A stretch of DNA of 64,000 nt, from contig CAXXIN010000007.1 in assembly GCA_963665275.2 (NCBI GenBank), positions 544,001 to 608,000 on the forward strand, in the 5' to 3' direction. Source of the stretch: Negativicutes bacterium (GTDB lineage Bacteria; Bacillota; Negativicutes; UBA1444). A program made the position numbers and the translations under genes. The notes below the pieces were generated by a model. The model made no database searches, was not told the DNA's origin, and was given only the letters and a program-made list of their open reading frames with translations. Position 1 is the stretch's first letter. Each line of letters starts with the position of its first letter. This document shows positions 38,068 to 58,774 of the stretch, piece after piece.

Positions 38068-39486
38068 CTAGAAACTCGTCGCATCACACTCAATCTCCGT
38101 TCCATCAAGCAAGCTAACAATCACTTGCTTCCTGCCAACCACTGTTATTTTCTCTACCAAGGCAAAGTATAGATCAATAACAAACTCGTCAATTTTCGAC
38201 CGGCTCAACACGATCTCTATGAACTGCCTAGATTTATATCGTTTCAGCAGGTTATCGCTTTTCAAACCCTCTTTCCACGTTCCAATAAAATAAGCCTTGT
38301 TCTCAATCATCGCATTAAACACATCAACAAAAGTCTGATACAAAACCCCATCGTCAATATGCTGGCTCTCACATCCTTTTTCACCCTTCACCACATACTT
38401 GCCGTTGCAGCGCCAGACGATCCGTCTGAACCGATCATCGGTTGAATTCCATACTTTTCTGCCATAAGCATGGCCGCAGGAACCGCAAATCACTCGGCCT
38501 GCAAAGGGATTATCCTCTGTCGCACATTCAAGTTTCTGAATGCCATACTTCAGAGCAAAATTCCGACGTCGTTCCATCTCCAGCTGCACCGCTTCCCACA
38601 TCTCCTTGTCGATGATCGCGGGATGACTATCCTCCACATAATACTGCGGCACCTGACCGGTATTGTCCGCCCGCTTTTTGTTCAAGAAATCCACGGTGTA
38701 GGTTTTTTGCAGCAATGCGTCTCCCATATATTTTTCGTTTGTCAGCATTTTTCGGATGCTGTTTTCGTACCATTTTGCTTTGCCATTCCAATTGGGAACG
38801 CGGTCTTTTTCTAGGTCCCGCGCAATTCGATTAGCCCCTTTTCCGTCGAGAAATTCTCTGTAGATACGCCTGACGATTTTAGCCTGCTTTTCATTGATCA
38901 CCAGATTGCCGTTTTTGTCTTTGTCATAGCCAAGGAACTTGGTAGCGTTAATAAAGAGCCTTCCCTGCTCAAACCGCCGCCGGATTCCCCAGGTACTATT
39001 CTCCGAGATCGACCGGGACTCGTCTTGCGCCAGCGAACTGAGAATCGAAAGCAAAACTTCGCCCTTACTGTCGAGCGTAAAAATCGCCTCTTTCTCGAAG
39101 GTCACCCCGATGCCCAAGTCTTTTAGCAGCCGAACAAAGTTGAGGCAATCCAGCGTATTACGGGCAAACCGCGAGATGGATTTCGTAATGATCATGTCGA
39201 TCTTGCCGGCTTTACAGTCTGCAATCATCTTATTGAATTGATCACGTTTTTTTGTGGAAGTGCCGCTAATGCCTTCATCGGCATATATCCCAGCGCACTC
39301 ATAATCCGGCTGCTTTTCAATATAGGTAGTGTAGTAGTTAACCTGGGCTTCGTAGCTTGATAACTGTTCTTCCTGATCGGTCGACACCCGGCAATACGCT
39401 GCTACGCGTTTTTTCTTCGGCTCCAGGTTTTCCGCAAGGCTGGTGCGATTGGGCCTTGCGGGTATAACGGTAATGTTTCTCGCCAT
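38068..39486 (-). CDS. Large serine recombinase
   Basis: VAAYCRVST, DEGISGT, KSISRFARN, zinc ribbon CGSCG...WRC. Confidence 0.95.
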   Translation of the reverse strand: MARNITVIPARPNRTSLAENLEPKKKRVAAYCRVSTDQEEQLSSYEAQVNYYTTYIEKQPDYECAGIYADEGISGTSTKKRDQFNKMIADCKAGKIDMIITKSISRFARNTLDCLNFVRLLKDLGIGVTFEKEAIFTLDSKGEVLLSILSSLAQDESRSISENSTWGIRRRFEQGRLFINATKFLGYDKDKNGNLVINEKQAKIVRRIYREFLDGKGANRIARDLEKDRVPNWNGKAKWYENSIRKMLTNEKYMGDALLQKTYTVDFLNKKRADNTGQVPQYYVEDSHPAIIDKEMWEAVQLEMERRRNFALKYGIQKLECATEDNPFAGRVICGSCGHAYGRKVWNSTDDRFRRIVWRCNGKYVVKGEKGCESQHIDDGVLYQTFVDVFNAMIENKAYFIGTWKEGLKSDNLLKRYKSRQFIEIVLSRSKIDEFVIDLYFALVEKITVVGRKQVIVSLLDGTEIECDATSF

Positions 39487-40769: not shown

Positions 40770-41314
40770 GTGATGGCCATGTCGACTGGCGATATCTTGC
40801 CGGATGTGTTAGCTCCCAATCTTAAACTCGTGATCTGCGGCTCCGCTGTCGGTGCCGAGTCCGCCCGTGCGGGTTCTTACTACGCAGGAAGAAACAATCT
40901 GTTCTGGCAAATACTCCATGAAATAGGCCTTACAGACCGTGTTTTGCACACTTCGGAATACCGCAACCTGCTTCAGTACGGAGTCGGCTTGACTGATGCC
41001 GCCAAGAAGGTCTCTGGGGTGGACGCCAATATCAAAACAGAGGATTATGATGCAGGCGCTTTTGTGCAGAAATGCTTTTCTTTCAACCCCAAATCATCTG
41101 TTTCAATGGCAAAAAGGCCGCCGCAAATTTATGTTCCTGGCAGCATCAGCACAATTGCAGAACAAAAGAAATCGGCTACGGAATCTACCCACACCCGATC
41201 CTGCCAAATGGCTCCACCCTATTCGTAGCCCCTTCGACCTCTGCAACCGCCAAGAGATATTGGCAGCCTGACTATTGGCGTGAACTGGCCGCATTACTAA
41301 AGCAACTGCCTTGA
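40770..41314 (+). pseudogene. G/U mismatch-specific DNA glycosylase (MUG-like), frameshifted
   Basis: LPDVLAPNLKLVICG...YYAGRNNLFW...GLTD in one frame, then FNGKKAA...PSTSATA in another. Shift at CAGAAATG near 41070. Confidence 0.75.
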
Positions 41315-43242: not shown

Positions 43243-45057
43243 CTACAGGCCTGCAATGTCATTGAAATCTTGCGTGCTTTGTGGCCGAAGTTTTAGACCC
43301 ACTACGCATCGTTCTCCGCTGCTATTCATTGCAAGTTTTACCCCTTTGGTTTTTAATGTTTCACTAAATTTTCTCCGACTAAAAAAACACCTCATCCCGT
43401 TTTTCACTACCCAGTCCCGAAAGTTCTGGAATAAATCAACGGTTTTGGTCTTGATGTTTGGTGCCTCCTCGCAACATTCATCCAACCAATCTGTAAATAC
43501 ATCATTTTCAGAACGATATTCCTGCGTTGCTTGAATCACATCCTCCGGGGGATTCAATCCTTCCTTTTGCCATTGAAGACAACCCTCGACCATCCAGCGA
43601 AGAATGCCTGGCCATTCTTGCCGAAGATTTTCTTTCAGCAGGTTGTCCCGAGCCGCGCCCTCAAATTTCTCCGTGAACGGTATCAGCCTGATTCGACGCC
43701 AAAAGGCGCCATCTTCTCCGCTGGCAGCCGGCTTATGATTGGTCAGTAGACACAGTTTAAACGACGGTGTAAAATCAAAAAATTCACAGTGCAAGAAGCG
43801 TGCTTTAATCACGTCCTGCCCAGTTAACTGCTTTACAAGCGCCATATTCATTTTCCGGCCTTCAATCGTTTCGCTGGCCAACACAAAGCGCGAACCCCGC
43901 AGAGCCGCAATGTCGTTGTTGATGCCTTCATTCCTTTTCACAAGCAAGGTTTCCGCCGGCGTTGTGGTGGCGTAATCCCCCATTATCGACTGAACTACAT
44001 TGAATAACGTGGATTTGCCATTCGCACCCGTCCCCCACGCAATGGCCAGGATTTGTTCTCGACAGTCACTTGTCAAACAGTATCCCAAAAACTTCTGCAC
44101 GAATCGGATTACGCTCGAATTCCCGCCCCCGAGTATGGTATCTGGAAAAATTTCCTCTAAAAACTGTGTGAACCGTGGACACCTTGCTACCGGGTCATAC
44201 ATCACCGGCGCTTGCTTGGTAATCAGATCAGTGTTGTCATGCGGCAACAGGGTTCCACTTTTCAAATCGATGGTTCCATTTTGCACATTGAGCTTCCATG
44301 GACTGCGATCAAAAGCGTCCACTGTGACACTCAATTTATACGAAGCCCCCTCGGCCATGGCTTTCATCCGAACAAGCGCTTCTGATTTGTTGGCATGCAA
44401 AGCAATGGCTTTCCTGTCAGCAGGTTCGGTGGCGGCGGCCGCCTCCGCGTAAATGGATCGAACACATTCAGCAGCCAATTTCATGATCTCGTGCGATTCA
44501 TCCCGTCGCCAGCACCCACCGGAATAAACGAACCAGGATTTAAGTTGTGGACAGTGCAGCACCCGGCCTTGGAACCTTCGGGCGAAACGCGATGCATTGC
44601 CCAGGTCCGTCAAATGTTTCGCCTGACTATATTCAGGATCATAATGCGCCGTTTGTTTTTCCTGTGCCCTTGCAATGGTCATAGCTCCGTAGGTCTTTTC
44701 TCCGTGCTGTTCGTCCCACTTGGGCCGGTATAGCTCCGATTGCCGAAACAATCTGTCTATCTGCTCAGAATCCTGCGTCCAAAAGGCAAGAATCATACAG
44801 AGTGCGGAATCCGCTTCAGATTGGGAAGTGTACCGGTCCGGATAATCCTGCCAACGCCCTTCCCATAAATCCATAAATAGAAAACTGTTGCGCTTGGCCC
44901 CCTGTGCTCTACTTACGATTTCATCGTCCGTCAGAAGATTTCCGTCCCCCTTTACCAGCGATTCATCTTGCGTCGGTGGCGGCTGAGGAGGATCAGCGGC
45001 GAAGATTTTAGCGTAGAATATGTTCAGTACATCCTGCCGGCTTGCAATCTCTTTCAT
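43243..45057 (-). CDS. P4-family/D5-like primase-helicase
   Basis: SQSEADSALC..LAFWT, TDLGNASRF, Walker A GTGANGKST, TNHKP, FWRRIRLIPF. Confidence 0.9.
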   Translation of the reverse strand: MKEIASRQDVLNIFYAKIFAADPPQPPPTQDESLVKGDGNLLTDDEIVSRAQGAKRNSFLFMDLWEGRWQDYPDRYTSQSEADSALCMILAFWTQDSEQIDRLFRQSELYRPKWDEQHGEKTYGAMTIARAQEKQTAHYDPEYSQAKHLTDLGNASRFARRFQGRVLHCPQLKSWFVYSGGCWRRDESHEIMKLAAECVRSIYAEAAAATEPADRKAIALHANKSEALVRMKAMAEGASYKLSVTVDAFDRSPWKLNVQNGTIDLKSGTLLPHDNTDLITKQAPVMYDPVARCPRFTQFLEEIFPDTILGGGNSSVIRFVQKFLGYCLTSDCREQILAIAWGTGANGKSTLFNVVQSIMGDYATTTPAETLLVKRNEGINNDIAALRGSRFVLASETIEGRKMNMALVKQLTGQDVIKARFLHCEFFDFTPSFKLCLLTNHKPAASGEDGAFWRRIRLIPFTEKFEGAARDNLLKENLRQEWPGILRWMVEGCLQWQKEGLNPPEDVIQATQEYRSENDVFTDWLDECCEEAPNIKTKTVDLFQNFRDWVVKNGMRCFFSRRKFSETLKTKGVKLAMNSSGERCVVGLKLRPQSTQDFNDIAGL

Positions 45058-46148: not shown

Positions 46149-46862
46149 TTAACTCTTTCGCTTCTTGAACGGTTTCAATATGAGTCGTATATCTGTTTGG
46201 ACATCGCGCAAAACGATTTCATCTTCAAGAATCCTGGAGTGGGTTTCCACTTTTTTTATATACCAATCCACAAACACCGTATGCATTTTACCACCCCAAC
46301 CCTGCTCTACGGTTCTCGTGTCATCACCGTAGCCTTCCGCACCTTGCGCAATTTCCCAGGATGCACGATATTCAATTTGAACCTGAGCTGGAATATCAAA
46401 AGGAATACCATATTCCGCTTTATATCTGGCCATAATCCACGAAAAAATCATAGAATCAACATTTAGATCATTTTCATAGAGCGGAGAATCCGAGGCATCG
46501 AGAAATACTTCCCTGCATTTATCGGCAGGCTCGTTTACTTCTGGCTCAGGATAAATCTCCACGTTTCCCTTTTGCCATTTCTCAAATTCAGCAAGGATAT
46601 CGCTCAATTCACCCTCGCAGATTTCGGCGATGAAACCTCTAGCCGCTGCCCTGACTTCTGCCACTTGTTTCATACTGTGGGCCTTCAAAAGGTGCGCCGC
46701 CGCCGCAATTTCCCACTTGGTTTCAGGCGGATATTCGCTCCACTTTCCTCCGGCACGTCCCTTATTTCCTCTTTGCGGCGTGGGAACCAGCCCTGCGTTC
46801 ACCCATCGGCGCAAGGTTTCACAGGAGATGGATGCATTTTGCAATACTTCCTCACGTGTCAT
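46149..46862 (-). CDS. Protein with an N-terminal MerR-like HTH
   Basis: MTREEVL...ISCETLRRWVNAGLVPTP; the C-terminal part is unrecognised. Confidence 0.6.
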   Translation of the reverse strand: MTREEVLQNASISCETLRRWVNAGLVPTPQRGNKGRAGGKWSEYPPETKWEIAAAAHLLKAHSMKQVAEVRAAARGFIAEICEGELSDILAEFEKWQKGNVEIYPEPEVNEPADKCREVFLDASDSPLYENDLNVDSMIFSWIMARYKAEYGIPFDIPAQVQIEYRASWEIAQGAEGYGDDTRTVEQGWGGKMHTVFVDWYIKKVETHSRILEDEIVLRDVQTDIRLILKPFKKRKS

Positions 46863-46881
46863 TGATATATCCCTCAATATT

Positions 46882-46938
46882 TCAAAACACATTATGTGTG
46901 TTTTGTTTTAATTATATCACTCGCGCTATTGCTGTCAA
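46882..46938 (-). promoter_or_regulatory. Sigma-A promoter with a downstream operator-like inverted repeat
   Basis: TTGACA (46933-46938), 16-bp spacer, TG-n-TATAAT (46911-46916). Inverted repeat CAAAACACA...TGTGTTTTG at ~46883-46905. Confidence 0.65.
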
Positions 46939-47047: not shown

Positions 47048-48061
47048 CTAATCGCCTTTTAAATACTTCTTCATCGCTTTGTCAAAATTCGAGATATACT
47101 CTTTATCTTGTTTTTCCCTAAACCTTTCATACTCACTTTGTGCTTTTGTAATGGCTGCCTCATGACTAATTTTTCCTGCATCTTTGAGAACTTCCTGCCG
47201 ATTATACTTTAAGAATTCATCTGTAATATCCAGCCAATCCTTCATGGTCATAATCTGTTCGTTCAATGCCTGAAATTCAGCATAATCAATATACATTGTC
47301 ACTATTCTGTTAAGGCGATCCAGCTCTTTTTCATTGAGGTAATTTTTTGCCACCGTAATATCGCTTTTCAAAATCTTTCCGGCAGGAGATGCTTTCCAGT
47401 TAGTTAGTCCCATTGTCGGGCGTGCGCTGTCAGCTCTATCATGAATTATTTCCGCCGCAGTTTTTCCGGTTATGGCAAAGTGCATTTTATTCTGGACAAA
47501 AGCATAGAATGCCCTCGTTTCCTCTGAACCCGAATTATAATCGCTACTGCACTGTTCAAATACATCGGCAATTTTCTGGTAAGCCCTACGTTCAGAAGCC
47601 CTGATCTCCCTAATGCGCTCTAACAGCTCATCAAAATAATCCTTGCCAAATGGTCTTCCGTTTTTTAGCATCTCATCATTCAATACAAAGCCTTTTAAAA
47701 TGTACTCCTTTAATGTTTGAGTTGCCCAGATTCTAAACTGAGTAGCCTTTATCGAATTCACCCGGTACCCGACTGCAATAATGGCATCAAGATTATAAAA
47801 TTCGACATTGCGTTTTATATTTCTTTCGCCTTCGTTTTGAACTGTTTCCATAACGGAAACAGTTGCATTTTTTTCAAGTTCACCGGATTCATAGATATTT
47901 TTAAGATGCTTAGAAATGGCGGCTTTCTGAACATCGAACAGTTCTCCCATGGCTTTTTGTGTCAACCAAAAATTTTCATCAGTAAAATAAACACTGACTT
48001 TTACTTTGCCTTCATCAGTTTGATAAAGTATTATTTTATTTTCTTTAGATGAATTATCCAC
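47048..48061 (-). CDS. RhuM-family protein
   Basis: WLTQKAMGELF, YNLDAIIAVGYRVNS, ATQFRIWAT, IREIRASERR, VAKNYL, AGKISHE. GTG start after AAAGGAG. Confidence 0.9.
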   Translation of the reverse strand: MDNSSKENKIILYQTDEGKVKVSVYFTDENFWLTQKAMGELFDVQKAAISKHLKNIYESGELEKNATVSVMETVQNEGERNIKRNVEFYNLDAIIAVGYRVNSIKATQFRIWATQTLKEYILKGFVLNDEMLKNGRPFGKDYFDELLERIREIRASERRAYQKIADVFEQCSSDYNSGSEETRAFYAFVQNKMHFAITGKTAAEIIHDRADSARPTMGLTNWKASPAGKILKSDITVAKNYLNEKELDRLNRIVTMYIDYAEFQALNEQIMTMKDWLDITDEFLKYNRQEVLKDAGKISHEAAITKAQSEYERFREKQDKEYISNFDKAMKKYLKGD

Positions 48062-48361
48062 CGTTCGACCTACTCCTTTCCTCGTTCTCTTGCAAAAGCT
48101 GCTTCTAATTCCACTATACGCCTTAAACACGGCATCTTCCGCACTCTGGCAGAAGATGATATCGAAACAATCAAGGCGAAAGACACGATTGCCAGCTGCA
48201 TATCGGCCACGAATCTCTATAATCCTAATCCTTATTCAGCGGGCTTCTTACCTTCAACATGATGCTCCCTTTGCGTGCCACACGGGCTAACATCAATACC
48301 CCCCGAGGGTTATTCGGCCGCTCTCTTGTTGCTGTCATAATTTGCGTAACTCAGGGCAACT

Positions 48362-49201
48362 TCACCAAACAAACGATTCTTCTGGGATGTTCGTAATAAC
48401 CAATTCTTTACCCTTAACACTGACTCTGGCGTTATGCTGAATATCGTACCCAGTCACCATGTACTGTTTATAGATATCCCTTATTAGATCGCAGTCATCA
48501 TAAGTAATAATCCACGGAATATCCCTAAGGTGTTCGGTTATAACCTGCTCAAGATTTCTGTGATCAGATTCTTTGAAGTAATTTGTATATAGCCGGCTCC
48601 CTTTAACTACGTATGGAGGATCAATATTTAAGAAAGCAGTATCGTTTGGGAAGTCTAATTGGTTAATAATCAAATCACTGGCATCGTAGTTATACAGCGA
48701 AATGCGATCCTCTAGCAAAGCAATATCCGTGATTTTCCTTTTTATCTCTTCCTTATTGAATCGACAATCCAGCTTATATTCGCCTTTCTGCATCAATCCG
48801 CCAATTGAGCCGCCTTTGATGATGCCAGAAAAGTTCACGCGATTTAAAAACAATGTTGCGAAGCCATCGCTCAAAGCATCTGCAGCACTGTCTTTGTACA
48901 CTGCCTTTTGTTTCTCTCGTTCATCAATTGTGATGGGCGTATCTGTAATTTTTCTAAGCAAATCGTCGGTGCTGTAAAGCACGGAATGCCAAAAATGATA
49001 TATATGCGAATCGAAATCATTTAATACAACGGATTGCACAACGTTATCGCATAACAAACCAATCCCTATTCCAAACCCTCCCGCAAAAGGCTCAACATAG
49101 GTTCTATCGCCCAGTGAATTGGTTTCAACAAGGTGCTTAACCTTGTCATAGATTTTTGATTTTCCGCCTGGATAGCGAAGCGGCGAAAGCGATTTAGCCA
49201 T
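48362..49201 (-). CDS. D12/Dam-class N6-adenine DNA methyltransferase
   Basis: SPLRYPGGKS, EPFAGG, LND, DPPY. Confidence 0.92.
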   Translation of the reverse strand: MAKSLSPLRYPGGKSKIYDKVKHLVETNSLGDRTYVEPFAGGFGIGIGLLCDNVVQSVVLNDFDSHIYHFWHSVLYSTDDLLRKITDTPITIDEREKQKAVYKDSAADALSDGFATLFLNRVNFSGIIKGGSIGGLMQKGEYKLDCRFNKEEIKRKITDIALLEDRISLYNYDASDLIINQLDFPNDTAFLNIDPPYVVKGSRLYTNYFKESDHRNLEQVITEHLRDIPWIITYDDCDLIRDIYKQYMVTGYDIQHNARVSVKGKELVITNIPEESFVW

Positions 49202-49204
49202 TGT

Positions 49205-52200
49205 CTACCTCTCACACACCAGATTTCTGTATGTCATAAACGCATTAGGAAGCCAATCCGACAAATCATAAGGATTCAAGTATATCTTTGTCCTTGTGTT
49301 ATCGAGTTTCTTCCGTATCGCAGGTACAACTTTAAAGTCGACTGAAGGATTAGGTTGAGGCGTGCCGATGTCCTCTGATATCAGCTTCCTCAGTGGCACG
49401 AGATACTTTTCTTGTTCGCTGTCATCGTATTCGTCTGGCAACTGCCCATATTGAGAATAGTCGAGAAGCTGCAGCCCTAAATGTCTGTCGAAAAATTGGT
49501 GGTTTCTCTGATTCCAGTAGTTGTCCAGACAATTCTTACAGGAATGCGAGCATTCACATTCTGAAAGAATGCTCCTTGCCCTATCGAGAACCTTATCAAG
49601 AATTGAGCCTATCAGCGATGAGTATCCCGCGCCGCTTGTGAGGTTGTCATAGAAGAACATTTCAATGTGCGATTTTCCGTCGCTCTTGATTCTCGGACGC
49701 CAACCGCCGCTGATTTCATTATAGTCAATGTCCAAGACAAGCGAAATAGATTTCTTGAGTGCTTCGTGCAAGGTTGTCACGGCCGCCCTAAGTATGCTTT
49801 TTTCTTCTGCATTGCTATTACCAATGAGTTTGGATGAGTCGTAAAAAATGTCCAACATAAACATATCCGTCAAAAATTCATACCCCAAATAGATACCAGT
49901 AGTGACAGTCCCCTCGTGGCGGCATAGTGGACGGCTATCGTGGTATGGTTGCGAGAAAGAAAATGCTCCTGAATTTGTGCCTGCAACCTCTGCACCGCCG
50001 CATTTCCTGCAAACATTGAAACCGTTCTTGCTTTTCCCCATGTTCACGGTCAAGACTTTTCGGTCAGGAAGATTGGCGAAGCGGATATTGCTCCGCCCGA
50101 ATTCTTCCATCCGTATGTCTTCTGGAACATAGGAATAATACGGAGCCTCCGCATAGGTGTATTGCTCATCTTCATCCTCGAACTTTACCTCATCGCCTTT
50201 GACGGGTGAAAAGCCCCAAGGCCGCAGCATTTTATTCTTTACAATGGGCACGCCACAATACGGACAAACTAATTGGTGTGAATCCTCTTGCTCCAAGCCA
50301 AACCAGTTGCACTCAGAACAAACGTAGATATCTTTATAATAGTCCGTGTTTTTGAAGTAGAATTCGGCCTGATTCGTTTCAAAACCTCTCGGACGAGGGT
50401 TGGCATAGAGTCCACCGCTCTTGAATTTTTTCTTGTCAATCGTTACAAAGCGTCCAGGGGCATATTCACTGAGGGCGACGGCGATATCCCGCTCCGGCGC
50501 ATATTGAATATCTCGCGGTGCGTTCCGTCCGCGTTCAGATTCCTTCTCAATGAAAAACCTAACAACATTTTTGGGGAACGAGTACGACGGAATAAAGCCT
50601 TCACGGTAAAAGACATCAAATGCAGGAGTTTCTTTGTCGTTGTTAATGTATTCATCGCGTTTGCCTTCAGCTAAAACTCTTTGGCATATTTTGCGGAAAC
50701 GAACAATGGTCACATCAGTAGATAATTTTGATGATTTCGCAAATGTTTCCGCAAATTCAATGAAATTTTCACTGTACAGTTCGCAGAACGATATTATACC
50801 TATGTCAACGATGCCGTCAAATTGGCCGCTCATGTCCGGTGTTGACATAAACCCATTCAACGCCAGCATATTGACATGACGTTGCTTTATTTTCGGATTA
50901 TCCCGGTCAATCCACGGCTTGCGCGGCGAACCGGAAATCATCTCGTCTGGATGCAAGAAGTAATGACTGTCGTGTGTTCCTCCCGAAGCGTATGTTACGA
51001 TCGTAGAGATTCCTGCATTCTTACGTCCAGCACGTCCTGCTCTTTGCTGGTAGTTTTCTCTCATAGGCGGTATGTTGCGAAGGCCGACAGCGGTTAAAGA
51101 GCCTATATCTATACCTACTTCCATAGTTGTCGTGCAACTTAAAACATCAATTGACTCCTCACCTTTTTCGCCTGCATTGATGTCTTGGAAGCGCATTTCA
51201 TACTTTTCTGTACGGCTCCAAGTATCACTGCGGATTTCTTTATGGGAAAGTTGCGCAGTATGTTCTTCAGTGTTTATTGTGTGAATGCTATCGATTTTAC
51301 TTAAGGCATTGAGAACCGGAAGGCGCCAAAAATCAAAGCGAGATAAGTCGGATTCGCCGATTGCCACTAAGTCCGTCGATTCAAAACAAGCACCGCAATA
51401 TTCGCCAATCTTGAATGGAGACAATTTCCCGCACCTAACACAACGAAACCATATGATGTCTTTGTCAGCAAACTTAATTTTTACCGCACGCAGCTTGATG
51501 TGGAAGCGACCAACTGAAGAGGAAGCGAAAAACAGGTCACGCACCTTATCGATGGTTTTTACTAAAGCGGTATTGTCAAGACAAAGGCGCTCTTGAATTC
51601 GTTGGAGGAATGTCTTATCCAGTGCGGCTGCGAAGTCAAAACTCAATCCGAATTCATGTGCTTTACTGCGTCCAGGCAGGCCCTTTCTAACATCATCTGG
51701 AATTGTTTCTCCCAAAGCTGCGCTGTCGTCCATTACATCCCAGAATAGTAACACAAGCAGCTGATAAAGGGTACTATTATCAACGCCGATTCCGGCGTCC
51801 TCTAATAAATCATCCACACAATCATCAAGTTCTTTTTGCATAGGGGCTAAAAAACCGATACCTATATCCTTGAAAGAGCGTGGACTTTCTGTGAAGAAAG
51901 TAAGCAACTGCTCATAGTAATCTTCAGGCAGCGACTGATATTCAAAGGCAATCGCCGAATAGTTAATAGATTTTCCTCGCCGTTCCGCTCTATTTTTTTC
52001 AATGCTGAATTTTCGTTGGTCATCTCTGAACTTATTTTTGCTTGTCCCGCTAAAGAAAGATAGGTTGTTTTGGATACAGACATCCAAGAACGCGGGGTAA
52101 AGATCAAACAGAGAGTGTTCATTTCTGTCGACTTGTAGTAGCAGAGATGCAAGCATAACCGCCTGGCGGAATGCGTCTGCATCAGATGATTTTGACAAAT

Positions 52201-54436
52201 CCAAGGCTAATTTCGCGGCGTTTTGGCGCGAGTCGGAGAACAACAGAACCTTCTTCCCTTGATTAATTAGTTCTGACTTCGGAAGTTTTGGCGGCTGAAG
52301 TTCAAACTGCGCTTTTGTAAGATTGTAGAATGGCACATTGCCTTTTGTTGATAAATCCACAGGCTTCTTCAAAGGCATTGATTTTTTACACTTGGGACAA
52401 ACGCCAAAGTTGAACGACTGCGACTTCGAGTCAAATTGATTGCTATAGACAACGGCGAGCAAGCTTTCATCGTCGTGGGGAGACGCATAGAGTTTTCCCG
52501 TCAAAGGGTCAAGTGCACCGATTTTATCATTCTTTTTTTTCTGATAGTTTTTAGGAATTACATAGAGCAACATCTCTTCAAGAGAATTTGCATCGCCATT
52601 TAAGCCTCGTTGCGGGAATACATACCAATAGGGCTGTCCTTCGATTTTCTGCAAGAAGACGCGTAGATACAGTCCACCGCACTTAATGTGGTTAACTAGC
52701 TCATATATCCTTCCACCACATGAGCAGTTATCTCGCGGCATTGAGATAATTTTACCAAGAGGGAGTTTCTCGCTTACAGAATATTTTGCGCAGGTGCATT
52801 GGGGGTTAGAACATGCATATAGCCCTTGAATCCCTCGCAAGAACATATGAAGACGCACGGGGAAAAGAACATTTCCATCTTTCGCGGCAAGTGCCACCAA
52901 CGCTAATAGAGCGTCGAGCGCTTTTTCGGCATTAGAAGCATCGCCAAATATTATGTTCTTTATCTCATTGTATGACTTTGCGCCATCACGACACAATCGA
53001 TTCAATTTGACGAAAGCTTCGTATTGGGGGAGGTTGTCGTTAAGCCATTCTTGTGCTTGAGATGGGCTGATATCTTCCGGCAAATCATAACGGAAAACAG
53101 CTGTAGCGAAAGCCTTAATTCTGTTGGAAACTTCTTCACCTTGAACTTGATCGGAGCCAAGTGAGGCTAACGCATCAATATTTATCTTAACCGCATACTC
53201 TTCAGATATATGGTCTTTTGAGCCGACCAAAAACTCACAAAAGGATGCGTTCTTTCCTGTGAGCCCTGTGTAGAAGTCATTTATCGCAGTTTGCTCGCCT
53301 TGGGGCATACTTGCAGTAGTAAGGATAAACTGAACTCTATCCTTTGAAATCCCCAAACGGTAAAACAGACGTTCCAACAAGAGCGCGATTTCTCCACCGG
53401 CAGAGCCGCGATACATATGCGCTTCATCCAAAACTATGAGGAGCTTGTTATCCGCCGATTCATCAAGCCATTCTTTTGTCTTATCCCAGATGTTGGCTTC
53501 ACGCTGGCGCATGAGCATATACTCCAACATTGAGTAGTTCGTAATCAAGATGTCCGGCGGACACCCCTGCATCTCAAAGCGAGTAATGTACTCAGCGTCG
53601 TAAGGCGATGGGTTGTGAATGTTCTTCTCAAGATTTTCAACGAAAACTTGAAGTCCGTTTTTTCCATATCGGGCAGGGTATTTATTGATGCGCTTTAACC
53701 CACCTATGTTGTTGGTTTGCCTCCTTTGCACATCTTTATCGGCAGTTTCGTCAATTAAATAGTTTTCTCGAAAAGTCGCAGCCAATTCGCGGCTACTTGC
53801 AAGTTTTGCATCCCCGGAGTAAGGGGTTCTGCCTGTATACATCCCGAAATGAGGTATCCTTGTTGCCTGAGTATCTCTCATGAAAATGTCTTTGAACTGT
53901 TCACTACCGATAATTTTTCTAAATCTGGCCAATTGGTCGGAAACCAGAGCATTCATTGGATAAATGATGAGCGTTCGCACCGCTTCCTTTTTGAACGCTC
54001 TTGAACGATTTTTCGCTTCTCCGAAGCATTTAGCAATAATTGGCCAAAGGAAACATTCGGTTTTACCTGAACCGGTGCCGGTTGAAACGAAAAGGTCTCT
54101 GCCTGACAGGAAGAATTCCAGTGCCTTAACCTGATGTTCAAACGGGTCAGGGAATATTCCGAGATTCTCTTTAACAAGTTTTAGCAGAGAATCTTTTACT
54201 CCCTGTTCAATCTGCTGGGAGTTCCTGATCCCATCAACTATTTTCTTGTATGAAGCCGAAGTTTCAATGTATGGTTCGCGCGCAATGTTCGTATGCTCTG
54301 AGCATAGTTCCCCCAGAAGGTCATCGACATACAGCAACAGCGTTTCGCTGTTGGCCAAATAGTCGGACTTTATGTAATTCTCCAGCCTGTCCCTAATAGA
54401 CTTATAATATTGCTGAACCCCGTTTGAGCTATTCAT
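49205..54436 (-). CDS. Large DEAH helicase with a DUF1998 C-terminus (DruE-like)
   Basis: [64 protein letters not shown]...CEC..SC..CL. Confidence 0.92.
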
Positions 54437-55445
54437 CCACGCAGCCTCCCTTTACCTCGATGCCGATGTTGGTAAGCGCAGCAATTGCTTCCCGCAATAA
54501 GTCATTCCGTATCAAAAAGTTGACCTTGTCAAAAGCATTGTTCTCAGGCCAAGACAAAAGCAACAGGTAGTAGTATTCACGGTTGGGCAAGTGTCCCCCT
54601 ATTCTTATTTTTGAATACTCCTCGTCTTGCTTTGCAATGGTGGCTTTAAGGGGCTTTCCGTAATGCGCTTTTAAGGCAAAATACAGCCGCCTATACTCAT
54701 ACGAGGTAAAGCTGTCGTTCTGCGGTTCAACAGTTTCTTCAGCAAATTGCAGGGCATCGTCCACCAACATAACCCTATAAAATGGACCAATTTCACTTTT
54801 CCGAGCTACGGTGCAGTCTGTTTCCATCTTTTTCCCCCAAGACTGCGACGGAACATTGTTTGATTGGGGATTAAAGAACTCAAGCTCGGAAAGGCTGATG
54901 TCTCTGTCATAGAAATCTATAGAGTCAAACCGTGATTGAAAATACATTTCACGAGTTAAGTCGTCTCTAATCATAAACTCTTTCACAAAAACTCTGTATG
55001 CTGTGGGGCTTAAAAAAGCGCCTAGTCCGTTAACATTATAAGCTGAATTGGGCACTCCAAAGAACAACGCTGTATTCCCAAGCGGCAAGCTTCGCCCGTA
55101 GTTGGCTATTCGGTTGCGGTTACTGTTATCAGTCAGAAGATAACCAGTTTCCTCGTAGACCCTCCTGATGTGAACAGGGAAGTTCACCAGTTGATTTCCG
55201 GTGTCAATGAATCTTTCTGAGATAGGAGGAAACAATTCCACAAACCGCGCCATCAAGTCATTCAGCACGATTGTCTGGTTATGCTTTGTTGTTCCGATAA
55301 CGCCGCCCGATAAATTTTGCGCCGTGCAAAGGCACCACTGTCCAAGAGCTGAGTAGCAGAGCCTATAAACAAAGGAGTCTTCGGATTCGCCGCGAAAACT
55401 GCTGATGCCCATATCTGATGACATTGTGGTTAACAAATTATTCAT
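54429..55445 (-). CDS. Hypothetical protein (DruD-like by position and size)
   Basis: ~338 aa, with an ATGA overlap upstream and an overlap with the helicase start. Confidence 0.7.
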
Positions 55446-57031
55446 CCCGCAAACCACCGCCTGAACAGATTCTTGTATTGACATCTTCCGGCATCTCCGG
55501 AATACTTAATCAACCGCTCGGACGTGTTATAAGGTGCAATCCGCATTACATCCACGCAGTAAGGTAAAATGTCGAATGCCAGTACACGGCATAAATCCAT
55601 TTCGGAGGATACATAAATGCACTTATGCTCGACCAAACTTCGACGAAAACCAAACTCGCTAAGCATATCTCTGAGCGATTGAGAATACCGTGTGCCCGGC
55701 AACACACATTGAAGGTTAGCCTCTTTTTCCTCGACCGTTGATGGATCTTCCGTTAAATCGGCATTGCCCAATAACGCTTCAATGCGATTAAGATTAAGAT
55801 AATGGCAATACCGCAAAAATTCTTCAGAAATATAGTATAAAGTTCTATCATAGGCGACCGTTAAGAAAATAATTTTATCCCTATGACGCTCAAATAGCGG
55901 TAATAGTTCAGTTTCATTAAAACTTCCGATGAAGTTATCCAAGCAAACAACGCGCCCGTCAATCGATAAGAATTTTTCTACATCTTGCGCCGAAAGGTCT
56001 TTGCAAAATGCAAGTGTCCTCACATTTGAAGTCGATACTAGCGCATTCGCGATGCACTTCATTAAGATCATGCCCACGCCCCGATTTATAACTACAGGTA
56101 CCCCTTGAAACAGGGTACAGCACAGATGCTCTTTCAATATGGCAAAGTATTCTGAGTTGCTTGGTACACCTAAGTTCTCTAAGTTGTATCCCAAATAATC
56201 CTTAAACTCATCCATATTATTGGGGCATTTTGGCTTTACAGCAGCTTCTTGTTGGGCTGCTTTGATATTTTGCTGTTTTTTCAATTCAGCTCTGATTTGG
56301 GCTTCAATTTGTTTTTTGCTGTCTATTATTTCTGTCAATTCTTTCCTAAGTTGCTGTATAATTTCTTCTCGATCATGTATTTTGGATTTGAAAGCCGCAA
56401 TTGATTCTTCGTTGCTTTGTATGGCGGCGCTCATTTTTTCAAGGCTTGCATTAGTACGTTTAAGGTCCTTAATCTCAGATGAACACTCATTAAGCTTTGT
56501 ACCAGTTCTAAACAATTCTAATTGAACATTTTCAAATTGTCCTTGCAACTTCTTTATTTCAGAAGCTTTGTCTTTTATCTCATTATCGAACTTCTCCCGC
56601 TTGCCATCGGAATCTTTAATAGCCTTTACTGCCACACTCAATAATGCAATGAATTCTTCCGAGTACTCTTCATTGACAAGTTTGAGAAACAAACCGATAT
56701 TGTCCGCAAAGAAACAGTTCGGCAATGTATGCAAAAGCGCAGCTTCTTTGCTATCGCCATCATCTATTCTTTGGGTTATGCATCCTTGAATCTCCTCCAT
56801 CCACCTACTAATATGTTTTTCAATGAAGGACGTGATAAAGGGCTGGTTGCGAAACCTATAGAGCAATGTATTTACTTGCGCCTGATTTTTCATGCTTGTT
56901 GCGCGGAATCCGGGCATAACTTTTGCGAAGTCTTTCGGGTAATGCTTGAAATAGCAAACCGATTCTTGAAGCGGGATTACTGAGCATATATAACGCACTT
57001 CGTCTTCGGTAAGTTGAGGAAGATACTTCAT
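55442..57031 (-). CDS. Coiled-coil protein with a possible degenerate NTPase C-terminus (DruC-like by position)
   Basis: 529 aa, long heptad-rich region, then VVCLDNFIG. ATGA overlaps on both sides. Confidence 0.7.
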   Translation of the reverse strand: MKYLPQLTEDEVRYICSVIPLQESVCYFKHYPKDFAKVMPGFRATSMKNQAQVNTLLYRFRNQPFITSFIEKHISRWMEEIQGCITQRIDDGDSKEAALLHTLPNCFFADNIGLFLKLVNEEYSEEFIALLSVAVKAIKDSDGKREKFDNEIKDKASEIKKLQGQFENVQLELFRTGTKLNECSSEIKDLKRTNASLEKMSAAIQSNEESIAAFKSKIHDREEIIQQLRKELTEIIDSKKQIEAQIRAELKKQQNIKAAQQEAAVKPKCPNNMDEFKDYLGYNLENLGVPSNSEYFAILKEHLCCTLFQGVPVVINRGVGMILMKCIANALVSTSNVRTLAFCKDLSAQDVEKFLSIDGRVVCLDNFIGSFNETELLPLFERHRDKIIFLTVAYDRTLYYISEEFLRYCHYLNLNRIEALLGNADLTEDPSTVEEKEANLQCVLPGTRYSQSLRDMLSEFGFRRSLVEHKCIYVSSEMDLCRVLAFDILPYCVDVMRIAPYNTSERLIKYSGDAGRCQYKNLFRRWFAG

Positions 57032-58467
57032 ATCCGCCCCTCCATGATAAATTGTTTTGCGGCCGAGTTTATCAAACCATACGATTCACATTTTTCTATG
57101 TATTGAAAAGCGATTTCACTGAGATCGCATAAATCAAAAACATCTGCTGTGAAAGGTTCTGTTCGCCTGTAATGAGAGATCAGGTCGTTGAGCAACTGCT
57201 CACCAATCAATTCATTATGTTGCCGAGGGTAAATACAACCGTCAAGATAGCTAAACATATAGCGCCTTATTACACATCCCGGAAATAGTGAAATGGACTG
57301 TCCTTTGCTCACAGGCGTAACGCCGGAGCGGCTGAACAAGTAGTGTTTGCTGTCATTCGACACATTATATACGCTTTCATATCTTTCCGCTATTTGAAAG
57401 TCGTCAAAGCCGATAGAGTGTTGTTCGCCCTTGGCAATTATAATCTCGACATTATTTTTGCACACTTTTGTTTGTGCCTTAACCGACACTCTTGAAATAC
57501 TACTTGAAACCTTCTCAATATCTTCGGAATGGGCATTTATATTGCCGTGAGCTTGCAGTGCAAAACTCGAATACAAAAAGACGTTATTGGATTCGATTAC
57601 TGCAACGTCTTCGACCTGTACCGCCGGCGGCCATAATAGGGTCAGCGTTTCGGAGGCTTCTAGCTGATAACCCCACGCTGCCACTAATGAATCCATATAG
57701 GCAGTCTTGCTCTTGAATATCAAATTTTTACCTAAAAAATTCCTTCCCATCGTTTGGAATTGAAATGTTTCATCCACTTTAATCTCGTTTGGCAGGCTAC
57801 TATCATAAGGTATCGAATATTGGCTTTGAAATGCAACGAAATATTGCACATTTGTGTACAACACAGTACTGCGAACCAGCTTTGCTTTATAGTTTTCATC
57901 ATTTCCTTGTATCTTAAAAAAAATGGGCGCATTGGTATCGAAAGATCGAAAAACCTCGTACTTCCGTTTAATCCCATTAAAAGTGTTCGATAAGAAATAA
58001 TTATGAGAGAAACGCATAATGTAAATCGGCGTGGGGGCATTTGGTGCAAAATTCTTATGGTTAATCAGCAATGAATCAAAAGGTTGTTCTTGAGCAGAAG
58101 CCCTCAACTCAAACCTAGTTGATAACTGCTCATAAGCAATTATCTCATCATCGCTAAAACTAAGTCCCAGATAAAACATCTTGGAACGCTTGTCAAAATA
58201 AAATTCCGCTCTCTCATTCTTGCTTTTCCTCGAATGTGGTTCTGTGCTTATTGCGCTGTATTGCCCGAGATAATCTTCACATCCTACATCATTGTTGCCG
58301 CTACGATGCCTAAAATGCGGAATCATGCTTATGCTTCCCACAGCAGCAATGCGGACTTCCTCGCCGCAATGAGCGCACTCGTAACGATACCGTTCCAGAC
58401 CACCACTTTGGGCGGCCAACTCCGCAGATACTTCGGATTGAAGAAAAGTATCATACGCCTTTCGCAT
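57028..58467 (-). CDS. Hypothetical protein with a CoiA-like N-terminal zinc motif (DruB-like by position)
   Basis: YECAHCGEEV...PHFRH...C; RBS GGGAG before MRKAYD. Confidence 0.7.
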   Translation of the reverse strand: MRKAYDTFLQSEVSAELAAQSGGLERYRYECAHCGEEVRIAAVGSISMIPHFRHRSGNNDVGCEDYLGQYSAISTEPHSRKSKNERAEFYFDKRSKMFYLGLSFSDDEIIAYEQLSTRFELRASAQEQPFDSLLINHKNFAPNAPTPIYIMRFSHNYFLSNTFNGIKRKYEVFRSFDTNAPIFFKIQGNDENYKAKLVRSTVLYTNVQYFVAFQSQYSIPYDSSLPNEIKVDETFQFQTMGRNFLGKNLIFKSKTAYMDSLVAAWGYQLEASETLTLLWPPAVQVEDVAVIESNNVFLYSSFALQAHGNINAHSEDIEKVSSSISRVSVKAQTKVCKNNVEIIIAKGEQHSIGFDDFQIAERYESVYNVSNDSKHYLFSRSGVTPVSKGQSISLFPGCVIRRYMFSYLDGCIYPRQHNELIGEQLLNDLISHYRRTEPFTADVFDLCDLSEIAFQYIEKCESYGLINSAAKQFIMEGRI

Positions 58468-58626
58468 TCCCGCAACACTCCCATTCAATAAAATGATGGT
58501 TAGAAATTGCCAGCTTTCTCCAGCGTTTTGTAAGTCAAGTGGGGAGAAAATTACTGTACTTACCATTATTTACTCTTCCATACTTTTCCGCGAATCCCTC
58601 CCAAATTCCGCCAATTTATCGATTTT

Positions 58627-58774
58627 CGCGTATTCGTAGACCCCGGGGGTCGGAAAAATCGCCTGAACCTAAGTCCAGGCGAACATAAATCTAACCTATT
58701 CGAAATACCCCAAGGCCGCGAAGCCTTATTATTCGCGCCTACTGCTTCTCTATCAACGCTATGCACTCCACATG
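58627..58774 (-). repeat. att arm copy A (rlmD 3' end plus conserved tail)
   Basis: HVECIALIEKQ* followed by GCGCGAATAATAAGG...TCGCCTGGACTTAGGTTCAGGCGATTTTT...ACCCCCGGGGTC; aligns with copies B and C. Confidence 0.92.
58654..58682 (-). terminator. Rho-independent terminator-like hairpin after rlmD (also present in att copies B and C)
   Basis: TCGCCTGGAC-TTAG-GTTCAGGCGA followed by TTTTT on the minus strand. Confidence 0.65.

Follow-up and report, generated by a model that had tools for sequence, protein, structure and literature searches.

A Druantia type I-like operon without DruA that carries a Dam-like adenine methyltransferase behind the DruE helicase

We analyzed a 64,000-nucleotide stretch of DNA from a Negativicutes bacterium (assembly GCA_963665275.2, contig CAXXIN010000007.1, positions 544,001 to 608,000), here called the window. 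It contains a five-gene operon that, to judge from its predicted proteins, is a member of the Druantia type I defense family that lacks DruA and has an adenine methyltransferase after DruE. The genes of the operon and the region in front of them are the following.

57028..58467, minus strand: DruB-type protein (DruB'), 479 amino acids (aa), identified with PADLOC DruB1 PDLC00003
55442..57031, minus strand: protein in the position of DruC (DruC'), 529 aa, assigned from a weak match to PADLOC DruC1, its coiled coil and its position
54429..55445, minus strand: DruD-type protein (DruD'), 338 aa, identified with PADLOC DruD1 PDLC00008
49205..54436, minus strand: DruE helicase, 1743 aa, identified with PADLOC DruE1 PDLC00013 and Pfam DEAD, Helicase_C and MZB
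48362..49201, minus strand: D12-class (Dam-like) N6-adenine DNA methyltransferase, 279 aa, identified with Pfam MethyltransfD12
58468..58690, minus strand: presumed promoter region and right island edge, non-coding, between the rlmD terminator and DruB'

The longest open reading frames (ORFs) on the minus strand are 57028-58566 (512 aa), 55442-57031 (529 aa), 54429-55484 (351 aa), 49205-54436 (1743 aa) and 48362-49201 (279 aa). The start of DruB' was placed at the ATG at 58467, because homologs are 477-479 aa long and residue 34 is the first to be aligned with the PADLOC profile, and the start of DruD' was placed at the ATG at 55445, because the DruD profile aligns from residue 14. With these starts, DruB' and DruC' overlap by 4 bp, DruC' and DruD' by 4 bp and DruD' and DruE by 8 bp, while only 3 bp separate the stop codon of DruE from the start codon of the methyltransferase (TAG aca ATG), and a GAGAGG resembling a ribosome-binding site for the latter is located within the 3' end of DruE. 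All five reading frames are intact and coupled. An earlier sequence-only reading of the window, which had described five tightly coupled minus-strand genes at 48362-58467 with a first protein of about 479 aa, was confirmed in both respects. The G+C content of the operon block is 0.43, as compared to 0.53 in the right housekeeping flank (rlmD, gatCAB, ligA).

DruE matched the DruE1 model with 1958 bits over residues 2-1739 and is a superfamily 2 (SF2) DEAH helicase that belongs to the YprA/MrfA family and carries an MZB (formerly DUF1998) zinc domain at its C-terminus. The motifs GSGKT at 122, DEAH at 337 and QRAGRAGR at 1131 are intact. Pfam recognized the DEAD, Helicase_C and MZB domains and no nuclease family, in agreement with the initial description of a large DEAH helicase that ends in DUF1998 and has no recognizable nuclease domain.

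DruB' covered positions 1-477 of the 477 positions in the DruB1 profile (683 bits, E 4e-206). The protein is built from an N-terminal zinc (Zn)-finger-like motif (CxxC ... HFRH ... CE), which aligns to canonical DruB (hhalign, E 2.3e-4), followed by beta-sandwich domains. In an AlphaFold model inferred from an alignment of 22 sequences, which is mostly beta and has a mean pLDDT (the predicted score in the local distance difference test) of 66, residues 85-270 and 357-479 were modeled as confident beta-sandwiches and the Zn-finger region was poorly predicted. Foldseek and VIA-align retrieved only generic immunoglobulin-like sandwiches for this model, with Z<=4.5 and no informative match in the PDB, and the match to Pfam CoiA_N was weak and under the cut-off (E 0.018).

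DruD' matched the DruD1 model with 532 bits (E 1.6e-160), and its C-terminal ~90 aa align to canonical DruD (hhalign E 0.003, blastp 1e-4). The AlphaFold model, based on 28 sequences, has a pLDDT of 88.5 and a predicted template modeling score (pTM) of 0.88 and displays an N-terminal winged-helix-like domain and alpha/beta domains without known match. Foldseek retrieved nothing at E<=0.001 and the ESM Atlas no usable match; the best hits by VIA-align, with Z 5.0-5.4, were to the winged helices of PadR, MarR and cullin proteins and covered residues ~1-150, a weak hint that the N-terminal ~150 residues may form a DNA-binding domain. The weak or missing fold matches of DruB' and DruD' do not show that their folds are new.

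DruC' agrees with DruC in its position, size and coiled-coil build, and it was kept in 34 of the related loci described below. A coiled coil (~120-265) separates its N-terminal from its C-terminal domain. The match to PADLOC DruC1 PDLC00006 was weak (E 2.3e-4) and confined to the coiled coil, the second DruC model in PADLOC, PDLC00007, gave no match, and hhalign aligned only 42 columns with canonical DruC (E 0.012); additional matches to coiled-coil models of SMC, JetC and LmuB were regarded as coiled-coil noise. The C-terminal domain is conserved, and the alignment displays a degenerate pattern resembling a P-loop and a Walker B motif (G.P...NR..G, then R[IV]VCLDNF). The ESM Atlas returned only unnamed clusters of Bacillota together with AAA and AAA_5 clusters at 0.81-0.83, which we treat as a lead only. 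Druantia I and II have been stated to encode inactivated homologs of CnuB, an McrB-like GTPase (Bell et al. 2025, PMC12458937). The P-loop-like pattern in DruC' would fit this statement.

Pfam searches at E<=5 with DruB', DruC', DruD' and the C-terminus of DruE yielded coiled-coil noise, MZB and the sub-threshold CoiA_N match only, and PDB profile searches (A1, A2, A3 and A7) returned no meaningful match. The sequence-only reading's assignments of B and D were supported by the strong PADLOC matches, while the assignment of C obtained only the weak match in the coiled coil. DruB', DruC' and DruD' are best seen as deeply diverged counterparts of canonical DruB, DruC and DruD.

The fifth gene codes for an enzyme that matched Pfam MethyltransfD12 (PF02086) with 74.1 bits, well above the cut-off of 22, and that contains the SAM-binding motif FAGG at 39 and the catalytic motif DPPY at 194; the DPPY adenine methylase that had been read from the sequence 3 bp behind the helicase was thus recovered. 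The match to TIGR00571 dam reached 62 bits, under the cut-off of 114.85, and the enzyme is hence not an orthodox Dam equivalog. Its nearest solved structure is 7m6b (E 1.6e-15). It matched none of the Druantia models in PADLOC, where the best match was to PD-Lambda-5_B (338 bits), and MTase_II obtained 271 bits. The methyltransferases fall into two clades, the enzyme of the window belonging to clade 1; DPPY is kept in 28/28 copies of the related loci, conservation is good in either clade between the SAM motif and DPPY, and eight scanned copies scored 341-396 bits against PD-Lambda-5_B.

DruA is a defining gene of Druantia type I (PMC7251935). No match to PF14236 (DUF4338) or to the PADLOC DruA1 model PDLC00001 was obtained in the genome, which is 92.6% complete, while PDLC00002 was not run genome-wide. 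When the PF14236 search was repeated together with control plasmids, DruA was recovered from 3/3 canonical type I plasmids, and none was found in the genome. A hidden Markov model (HMM) built from six DruA proteins recovered 6/6 controls and had 0 matches in the window and the 41 related loci, and the DruA domain was present in 0/34 scanned proteins upstream of the related operons. In the window, rlmD and its terminator are located upstream of DruB'. That the operon has no DruA, as originally proposed, therefore held in profile searches in which the controls were recovered. Since no locus of the DruB'-type clade has DruA, the DruA-less state is the stable form of the whole clade and not a recent loss.

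The related loci were collected by scanning one genome per species with the DruB' alignment. In total, 41 loci were obtained, the ORFs of which were called and labeled by blastp with the window proteins. DruE is present in 32 of these, and 31 could be assessed downstream of DruE after exclusion of one locus that ends inside DruE (L022). The DruB' family as such comprises 374 homologous clusters, mostly of 477-479 aa, mainly from Clostridia and other Bacillota. An intact methyltransferase of the same family is located directly after DruE in 24 of the 31 assessable loci, and in 20 of the 24 it starts between -29 and +19 bp from the stop codon of DruE. Decayed remnants in the same place were detected with the methyltransferase HMM in three more loci (L015, L020 and L024). 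One of these has a split DruE in addition to the remnant (L024:12513-12692), and another methyltransferase of the family is located 0.7-2.5 kb upstream of DruB in L015, L016, L020 and L021, so that decayed copies were observed only where a family methyltransferase is next door or DruE is broken. Two outcomes that could have overturned the original proposal and were open to a test by sequence, namely that all five genes match a defined system or that the methyltransferase does not co-occur with such operons, were both contradicted: DruA is absent, the match of C is weak and the methyltransferase is in no Druantia model, and the linkage recurs in the loci just described.

The mobile contexts of the 41 loci are unrelated and include Tn7-like TnsD/TnsE, MobA and Mob_Pre relaxases, and serine and tyrosine recombinases. 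Because the flanking mobile elements differ, the methyltransferase travels with the Dru genes and not with a particular backbone. Taken by its gene content, the DruA-less, methyltransferase-linked operon is a stable and widespread subtype of type I.

We compared the operon to PD-lambda-5, a two-gene defense system of E. coli, since the methyltransferase of the window belongs to the PD-Lambda-5_B family. The gene could in principle be the leftover B gene of such a system beside a DruA-less Druantia remnant, that is, two systems of which one is incomplete, a view to which the 338-bit match lends itself. In locus L015, moreover, a methyltransferase of the same family (372 bits to PD-Lambda-5_B) adjoins a PD-Lambda-5_A protein (207 bits) next to the Druantia operon (L015:6590-9313, minus strand). 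This pair is located upstream and on the other strand, however, and is a separate, complete PD-lambda-5 system directly upstream of the Druantia operon, while the remnant after DruE is a copy of its own. The partner of the methyltransferase in the window is the Druantia core, with no A gene beside it: PD-Lambda-5_A was absent from the matches listed for the neighboring genes at 47048-48130 (a RhuM-family gene; best 25 of 37 families) and 46149-46892, and none was found genome-wide with PDLC04017, the only one of the 25 or more A models to be run on the genome. In the 24 loci with an intact copy directly after DruE, no A gene lies in between. We therefore consider a PD-lambda-5 leftover very improbable. 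In L015, where its own downstream methyltransferase is decayed, one methyltransferase is perhaps standing in for another.

Pairwise distances were compared for 28 operons, namely that of the window and those of 27 related loci. The distances of DruB', DruC' and DruD' track those of DruE, with Spearman coefficients of 0.94-0.96 (0.94 for DruC'). The observed values, here and for the methyltransferase below, were reached in 0/2000 permutations, although kinship inflates such tests. These data bear on the idea that the operon represents an incomplete or degenerating Druantia of type I, from which DruA was lost and which is non-functional, with an irrelevant methyltransferase, as might be thought from DruA being a defining gene of type I (PMC7251935) and from the strong recognition by PADLOC of only three of the five canonical genes. 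The coupled and intact reading frames, the co-evolution of B, C, D and E over 28 operons, the 374 clusters of the DruB family, the lack of DruA throughout the clade and a ~99% identical copy with other flanks in a public sequencing run (X5, see below) all speak against decay, which we regard as scarcely credible.

We also searched plasmids for DruE by tblastn, which gave 169 records, of which H1, H3, H4 and H7-H10, all among the ten best, and H12 were examined and H2, H5 and H6 left out. H7 is unannotated and H12 is a type III (DruH-DruE) locus. The other six are DruE1-like loci outside the DruB'-type clade, from P. putida, Ralstonia, Halalkaliarchaeum, Nitrosococcus, Meiothermus and Leisingera; 6/6 of them have DruA or a DUF4338 protein beside DruE, and 0/6 have this methyltransferase. 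In a FastTree phylogeny of 39 DruE proteins rooted on type III, the 6 DruA-linked and the 32 DruB'-type helicases form sister clades. Within the DruB'-type clade, L029 branches first and L040 is nested among the loci that carry the methyltransferase.

In the 2018 description of the system by Doron et al., Druantia type I reportedly consists of druABCDE and type II of DruM-DruF-DruG-DruE, in which the methylase is said to be a cytosine methylase. The plasmids pUW163a of R. solanacearum and pKF715A of P. putida have the genes DruA-B-C-D-E and no methyltransferase within 9 kb. The UW163 set has been named a complete Druantia type I in a published survey (PMC7251935). The window operon shares with these the order and the sizes of B, C, D and E, a DruE that is 33-35% identical to the canonical plasmid proteins over nearly the full length, and, at the profile level, the N-terminal Zn-finger motif of DruB and the C-terminal ~90 aa of DruD; PADLOC files B', D' and E of the window under type I models. 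It differs in the lack of DruA (DUF4338) and in the Dam-like methyltransferase after DruE. Furthermore, canonical DruB and DruC have no pairwise similarity to the proteins of the window and DruD has a weak C-terminal match only, and the canonical proteins match PDLC00002, 00005 (DruB), 00006 and 00009, whereas B' and D' of the window match PDLC00003 and PDLC00008.

With Druantia type II the operon has in common a DruE helicase and a DNA methyltransferase within one operon, but the methyltransferase is a D12 N6-adenine enzyme and the DruE2 models scored 612-635 bits as compared to 1958 bits for DruE1. DruM, DruF and DruG were absent at E<=0.001 from the matches listed for the five proteins, a listing that covers the best 25 of 27 families in the case of DruE. 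DISARM and ARMADA also pair a YprA-family helicase with a DNA methylase (Bell et al. 2025, PMC12458937), and the coupling of a YprA/DUF1998 helicase to a DNA methyltransferase suggests that the same modification-dependent logic may apply. According to that source, however, those systems have large methylases of the PglX/DrmMI type and a BrxHII-like helicase or a phospholipase D (PLD) nuclease, in contrast to the small Dam-like enzyme and the DruB/C/D set of the window. DISARM is characterized by a DrmA helicase apart from a DUF1998 protein (DrmB), a PLD nuclease (DrmC) and a DrmMI/MII methylase. Matches to PADLOC DrmA were partial only (~65 aa, E ~5e-11), no PLD domain was found, and DrmB, DrmC and DrmM were absent from the matches listed (again the best 25 of 27 families for DruE).

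The sequence-only reading had further not recognized the architecture among the named subtypes. This was correct in part: PADLOC type I covers B, D and E, and Table S1 of Bell et al. 2025 (PMC12458937) already includes the helicase clade, with ~1,700 helicases, under the name 'Druantia Type I-like', but no description of a DruA-less or Dam-linked type I was found in the literature covered, which for Bell et al. 2025 comprised sections of the text and Table S1.

Taken together, we propose that the DruB'-DruC'-DruD'-DruE core and the Dam-like methyltransferase constitute a restriction-modification-like subtype of Druantia type I in which the methyltransferase marks self DNA, with a probability of roughly 0.6. 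The methyltransferase would mark a short motif on the host's own DNA. DruE would load on DNA together with an accessory trio composed of a Zn-finger/beta-sandwich protein (DruB'), a coiled-coil protein with a dead P-loop-like domain (DruC') and a winged-helix protein (DruD'), and the complex would act on unmarked DNA, by which the replication of a phage or plasmid would be blocked. Methylation of the host genome, discrimination by the mark, defense and the way in which an invader is stopped are predictions from the proteins encoded, in a logic that would be comparable to that of Druantia type II, DISARM and ARMADA.

Several observations count against this proposal in its simple version. No nuclease or methyl-reading domain was recognized in the operon proteins by Pfam, PDB profiles, Foldseek or VIA-align. 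Two loci, L029 and L040, and only these, have an intact B'-C'-D'-E core and no family methyltransferase in the locus; at the genome level, no family methyltransferase was found at E<=1e-10 for L040 and only a distant one of 46 bits for L029. From these loci, the core may not be self-toxic without the methyltransferase. The distances of the methyltransferase follow those of DruE only loosely (Spearman 0.45). A methyltransferase of clade 2 replaces that of clade 1 in L005 and L006 and is located upstream in L015, L016, L020 and L021, while DruE in the loci with a clade 2 enzyme is still 78-83% identical to DruE of the window. By these sequences, the methyltransferase was swapped on two or more occasions, and this sits uneasily with a sequence-specific reader. 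Finally, the contrast between DruA and the methyltransferase may reflect a single ancient event that separates two deep clades, and is therefore no independent statistical support.

Some of these observations bear on a different explanation, in which the methyltransferase is an independent orphan or anti-restriction enzyme, or an epigenetic regulator, that rides at the 3' end of the operon and the mark of which is ignored by DruB'C'D'E; it would then protect the DNA of the island from host restriction on transfer, or regulate epigenetically. D12 enzymes of the Dam type work without partners and are frequently carried by mobile elements. The loose congruence, the swaps and the two cores without a methyltransferase also speak for this explanation. 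We also estimated the background rate in 401 sampled genomes of the phylum. DruB1 was found in 3 and a methyltransferase homolog at E<=1e-20 in 16 of the genomes, and with the window copy set aside, the homologs have an identity of at most 48%, except for one C-terminal fragment of 52% (G346), which abuts DruB fragments and represents a deletion scar. The homologs in 13 of the 401 genomes, that is, the 16 minus those of the window, G346 and G180, are 37-48% identical and occur without a DruB1 match, which likewise counts in favor of an independent enzyme. On the other hand, the linkage to DruE holds over unrelated mobile backbones, 20 of the 24 intact copies show translational coupling to DruE or come close to it, decay is seen only beside another family methyltransferase or a broken DruE, and an anti-restriction enzyme would be expected with transfer genes rather than in a defense operon. 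We consider an independent methyltransferase unlikely, and retain self-marking by the methyltransferase as the preferred explanation.

Deletion scars were observed in three places: in L008 (~10.8 kb) and G346:C85:2470-3506, DruB fragments abut a C-terminal methyltransferase fragment and the intervening genes are lost, and in L024:12513-12692 the methyltransferase remnant is located behind the split DruE.

E. coli that expresses type I Druantia gains N6-methyladenine (m6A) at CAGCTGNC, for which the responsible gene is unknown and no methylase domain is known (Ojima et al., 10.1101/2024.04.14.589459). According to a 2026 preprint, methyltransferase accessory modules are part of Druantia types I and II (10.64898/2026.05.12.722862), and DUF4338 has been called a GNAT-like acetyltransferase domain (PMC10853773). 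It is conceivable, albeit doubtful, that the Dam-like methyltransferase fills the slot of DruA and that type I as a whole relies on epigenetic discrimination of self from non-self, with DruA producing the adenine mark directly or via a recruited host enzyme. In that case, the Bacillota subtype would be a natural 'explicit' version, through which the working of the entire family could be tested.

In E. coli, type I Druantia ranks with the most powerful and widest-ranging phage defenses and was the most extensive of 33 systems in one preprint (10.1101/2024.04.14.589459). A natural subtype with a hard-wired adenine methyltransferase and no DruA would allow direct tests of the modification logic and of the role of DruA. 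The catalogs under-describe this subtype: the DruC models barely detect the C gene and no Druantia model covers the methyltransferase, so that annotation will probably present these loci as partial systems.

The operon is the outermost (last) cargo block of an integrative island of ~20 kb at 38068-58690, just downstream of rlmD. The island also carries an HTH (helix-turn-helix) gene and a MerR-like gene in addition to the following genes.

38068-39486: large serine recombinase
40770-41228: gene similar to uracil-DNA glycosylase (UDG)
43243-45057: P4-family primase
47048-48130, minus strand: RhuM-family gene (Pfam Virulence_RhuM, 365 bits; PADLOC candidate PDC-S05, 488 bits)

A terminator-like hairpin is located at 58682-58659, after rlmD, and the contigs of the public runs X4, X5 and X7 part from the window between 58654 and 58690, consistent with an island edge at this site. 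A direct-repeat search over 37600-58800 for attachment (att) repeats gave only short, chance-like families, as expected for a serine recombinase, and no tRNA genes were found in the window. In L027 and L042, which belong to another family, rlmD is again found upstream of DruB, at a distance of 208 bp, suggesting that the target site is shared. In run X5, which is labeled as another organism, the segment 46340-58620 (RhuM, methyltransferase and DruE-D-C-B) is present on two contigs with 74 differences in ~12.3 kb, corresponding to ~99% identity. In this run, the island's replication part differs by 5-8% or has no coverage and the right flank is essentially absent, a pattern that suggests that the cargo block has recently spread horizontally.

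The RhuM-family gene begins 231 bp past the methyltransferase. Homologs with 43-49% identity are located beside the Dru operon, upstream or downstream, in L008, L013, L019 and L031, and the homolog in L019 overlaps the end of the methyltransferase. The gene may be a co-travelling defense candidate.

Two further genes recur near the related operons. One codes for a small Xre-type HTH protein of 77-91 aa that was found in six related loci and that immediately precedes DruB in four. These proteins are reminiscent of the controller proteins of restriction-modification systems, and no copy was found in the window by tblastn. The other codes for a protein of 272-305 aa without Pfam or PADLOC match, located just upstream of DruB in the Lachnospiraceae branch.

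L009:5744-6019, L019:424-657, L037:9612-9887, L038:9610-9885, L008:8578-8844 and L026:1943-2206: Xre-type HTH protein
L036:8843-9760, L041:8862-9779, L045:8843-9760, L037:8581-9399 and L040:8846-9721: protein of the Lachnospiraceae branch

The three copies of the latter with 305 aa cluster together, and the gene may represent a further accessory gene of that branch.

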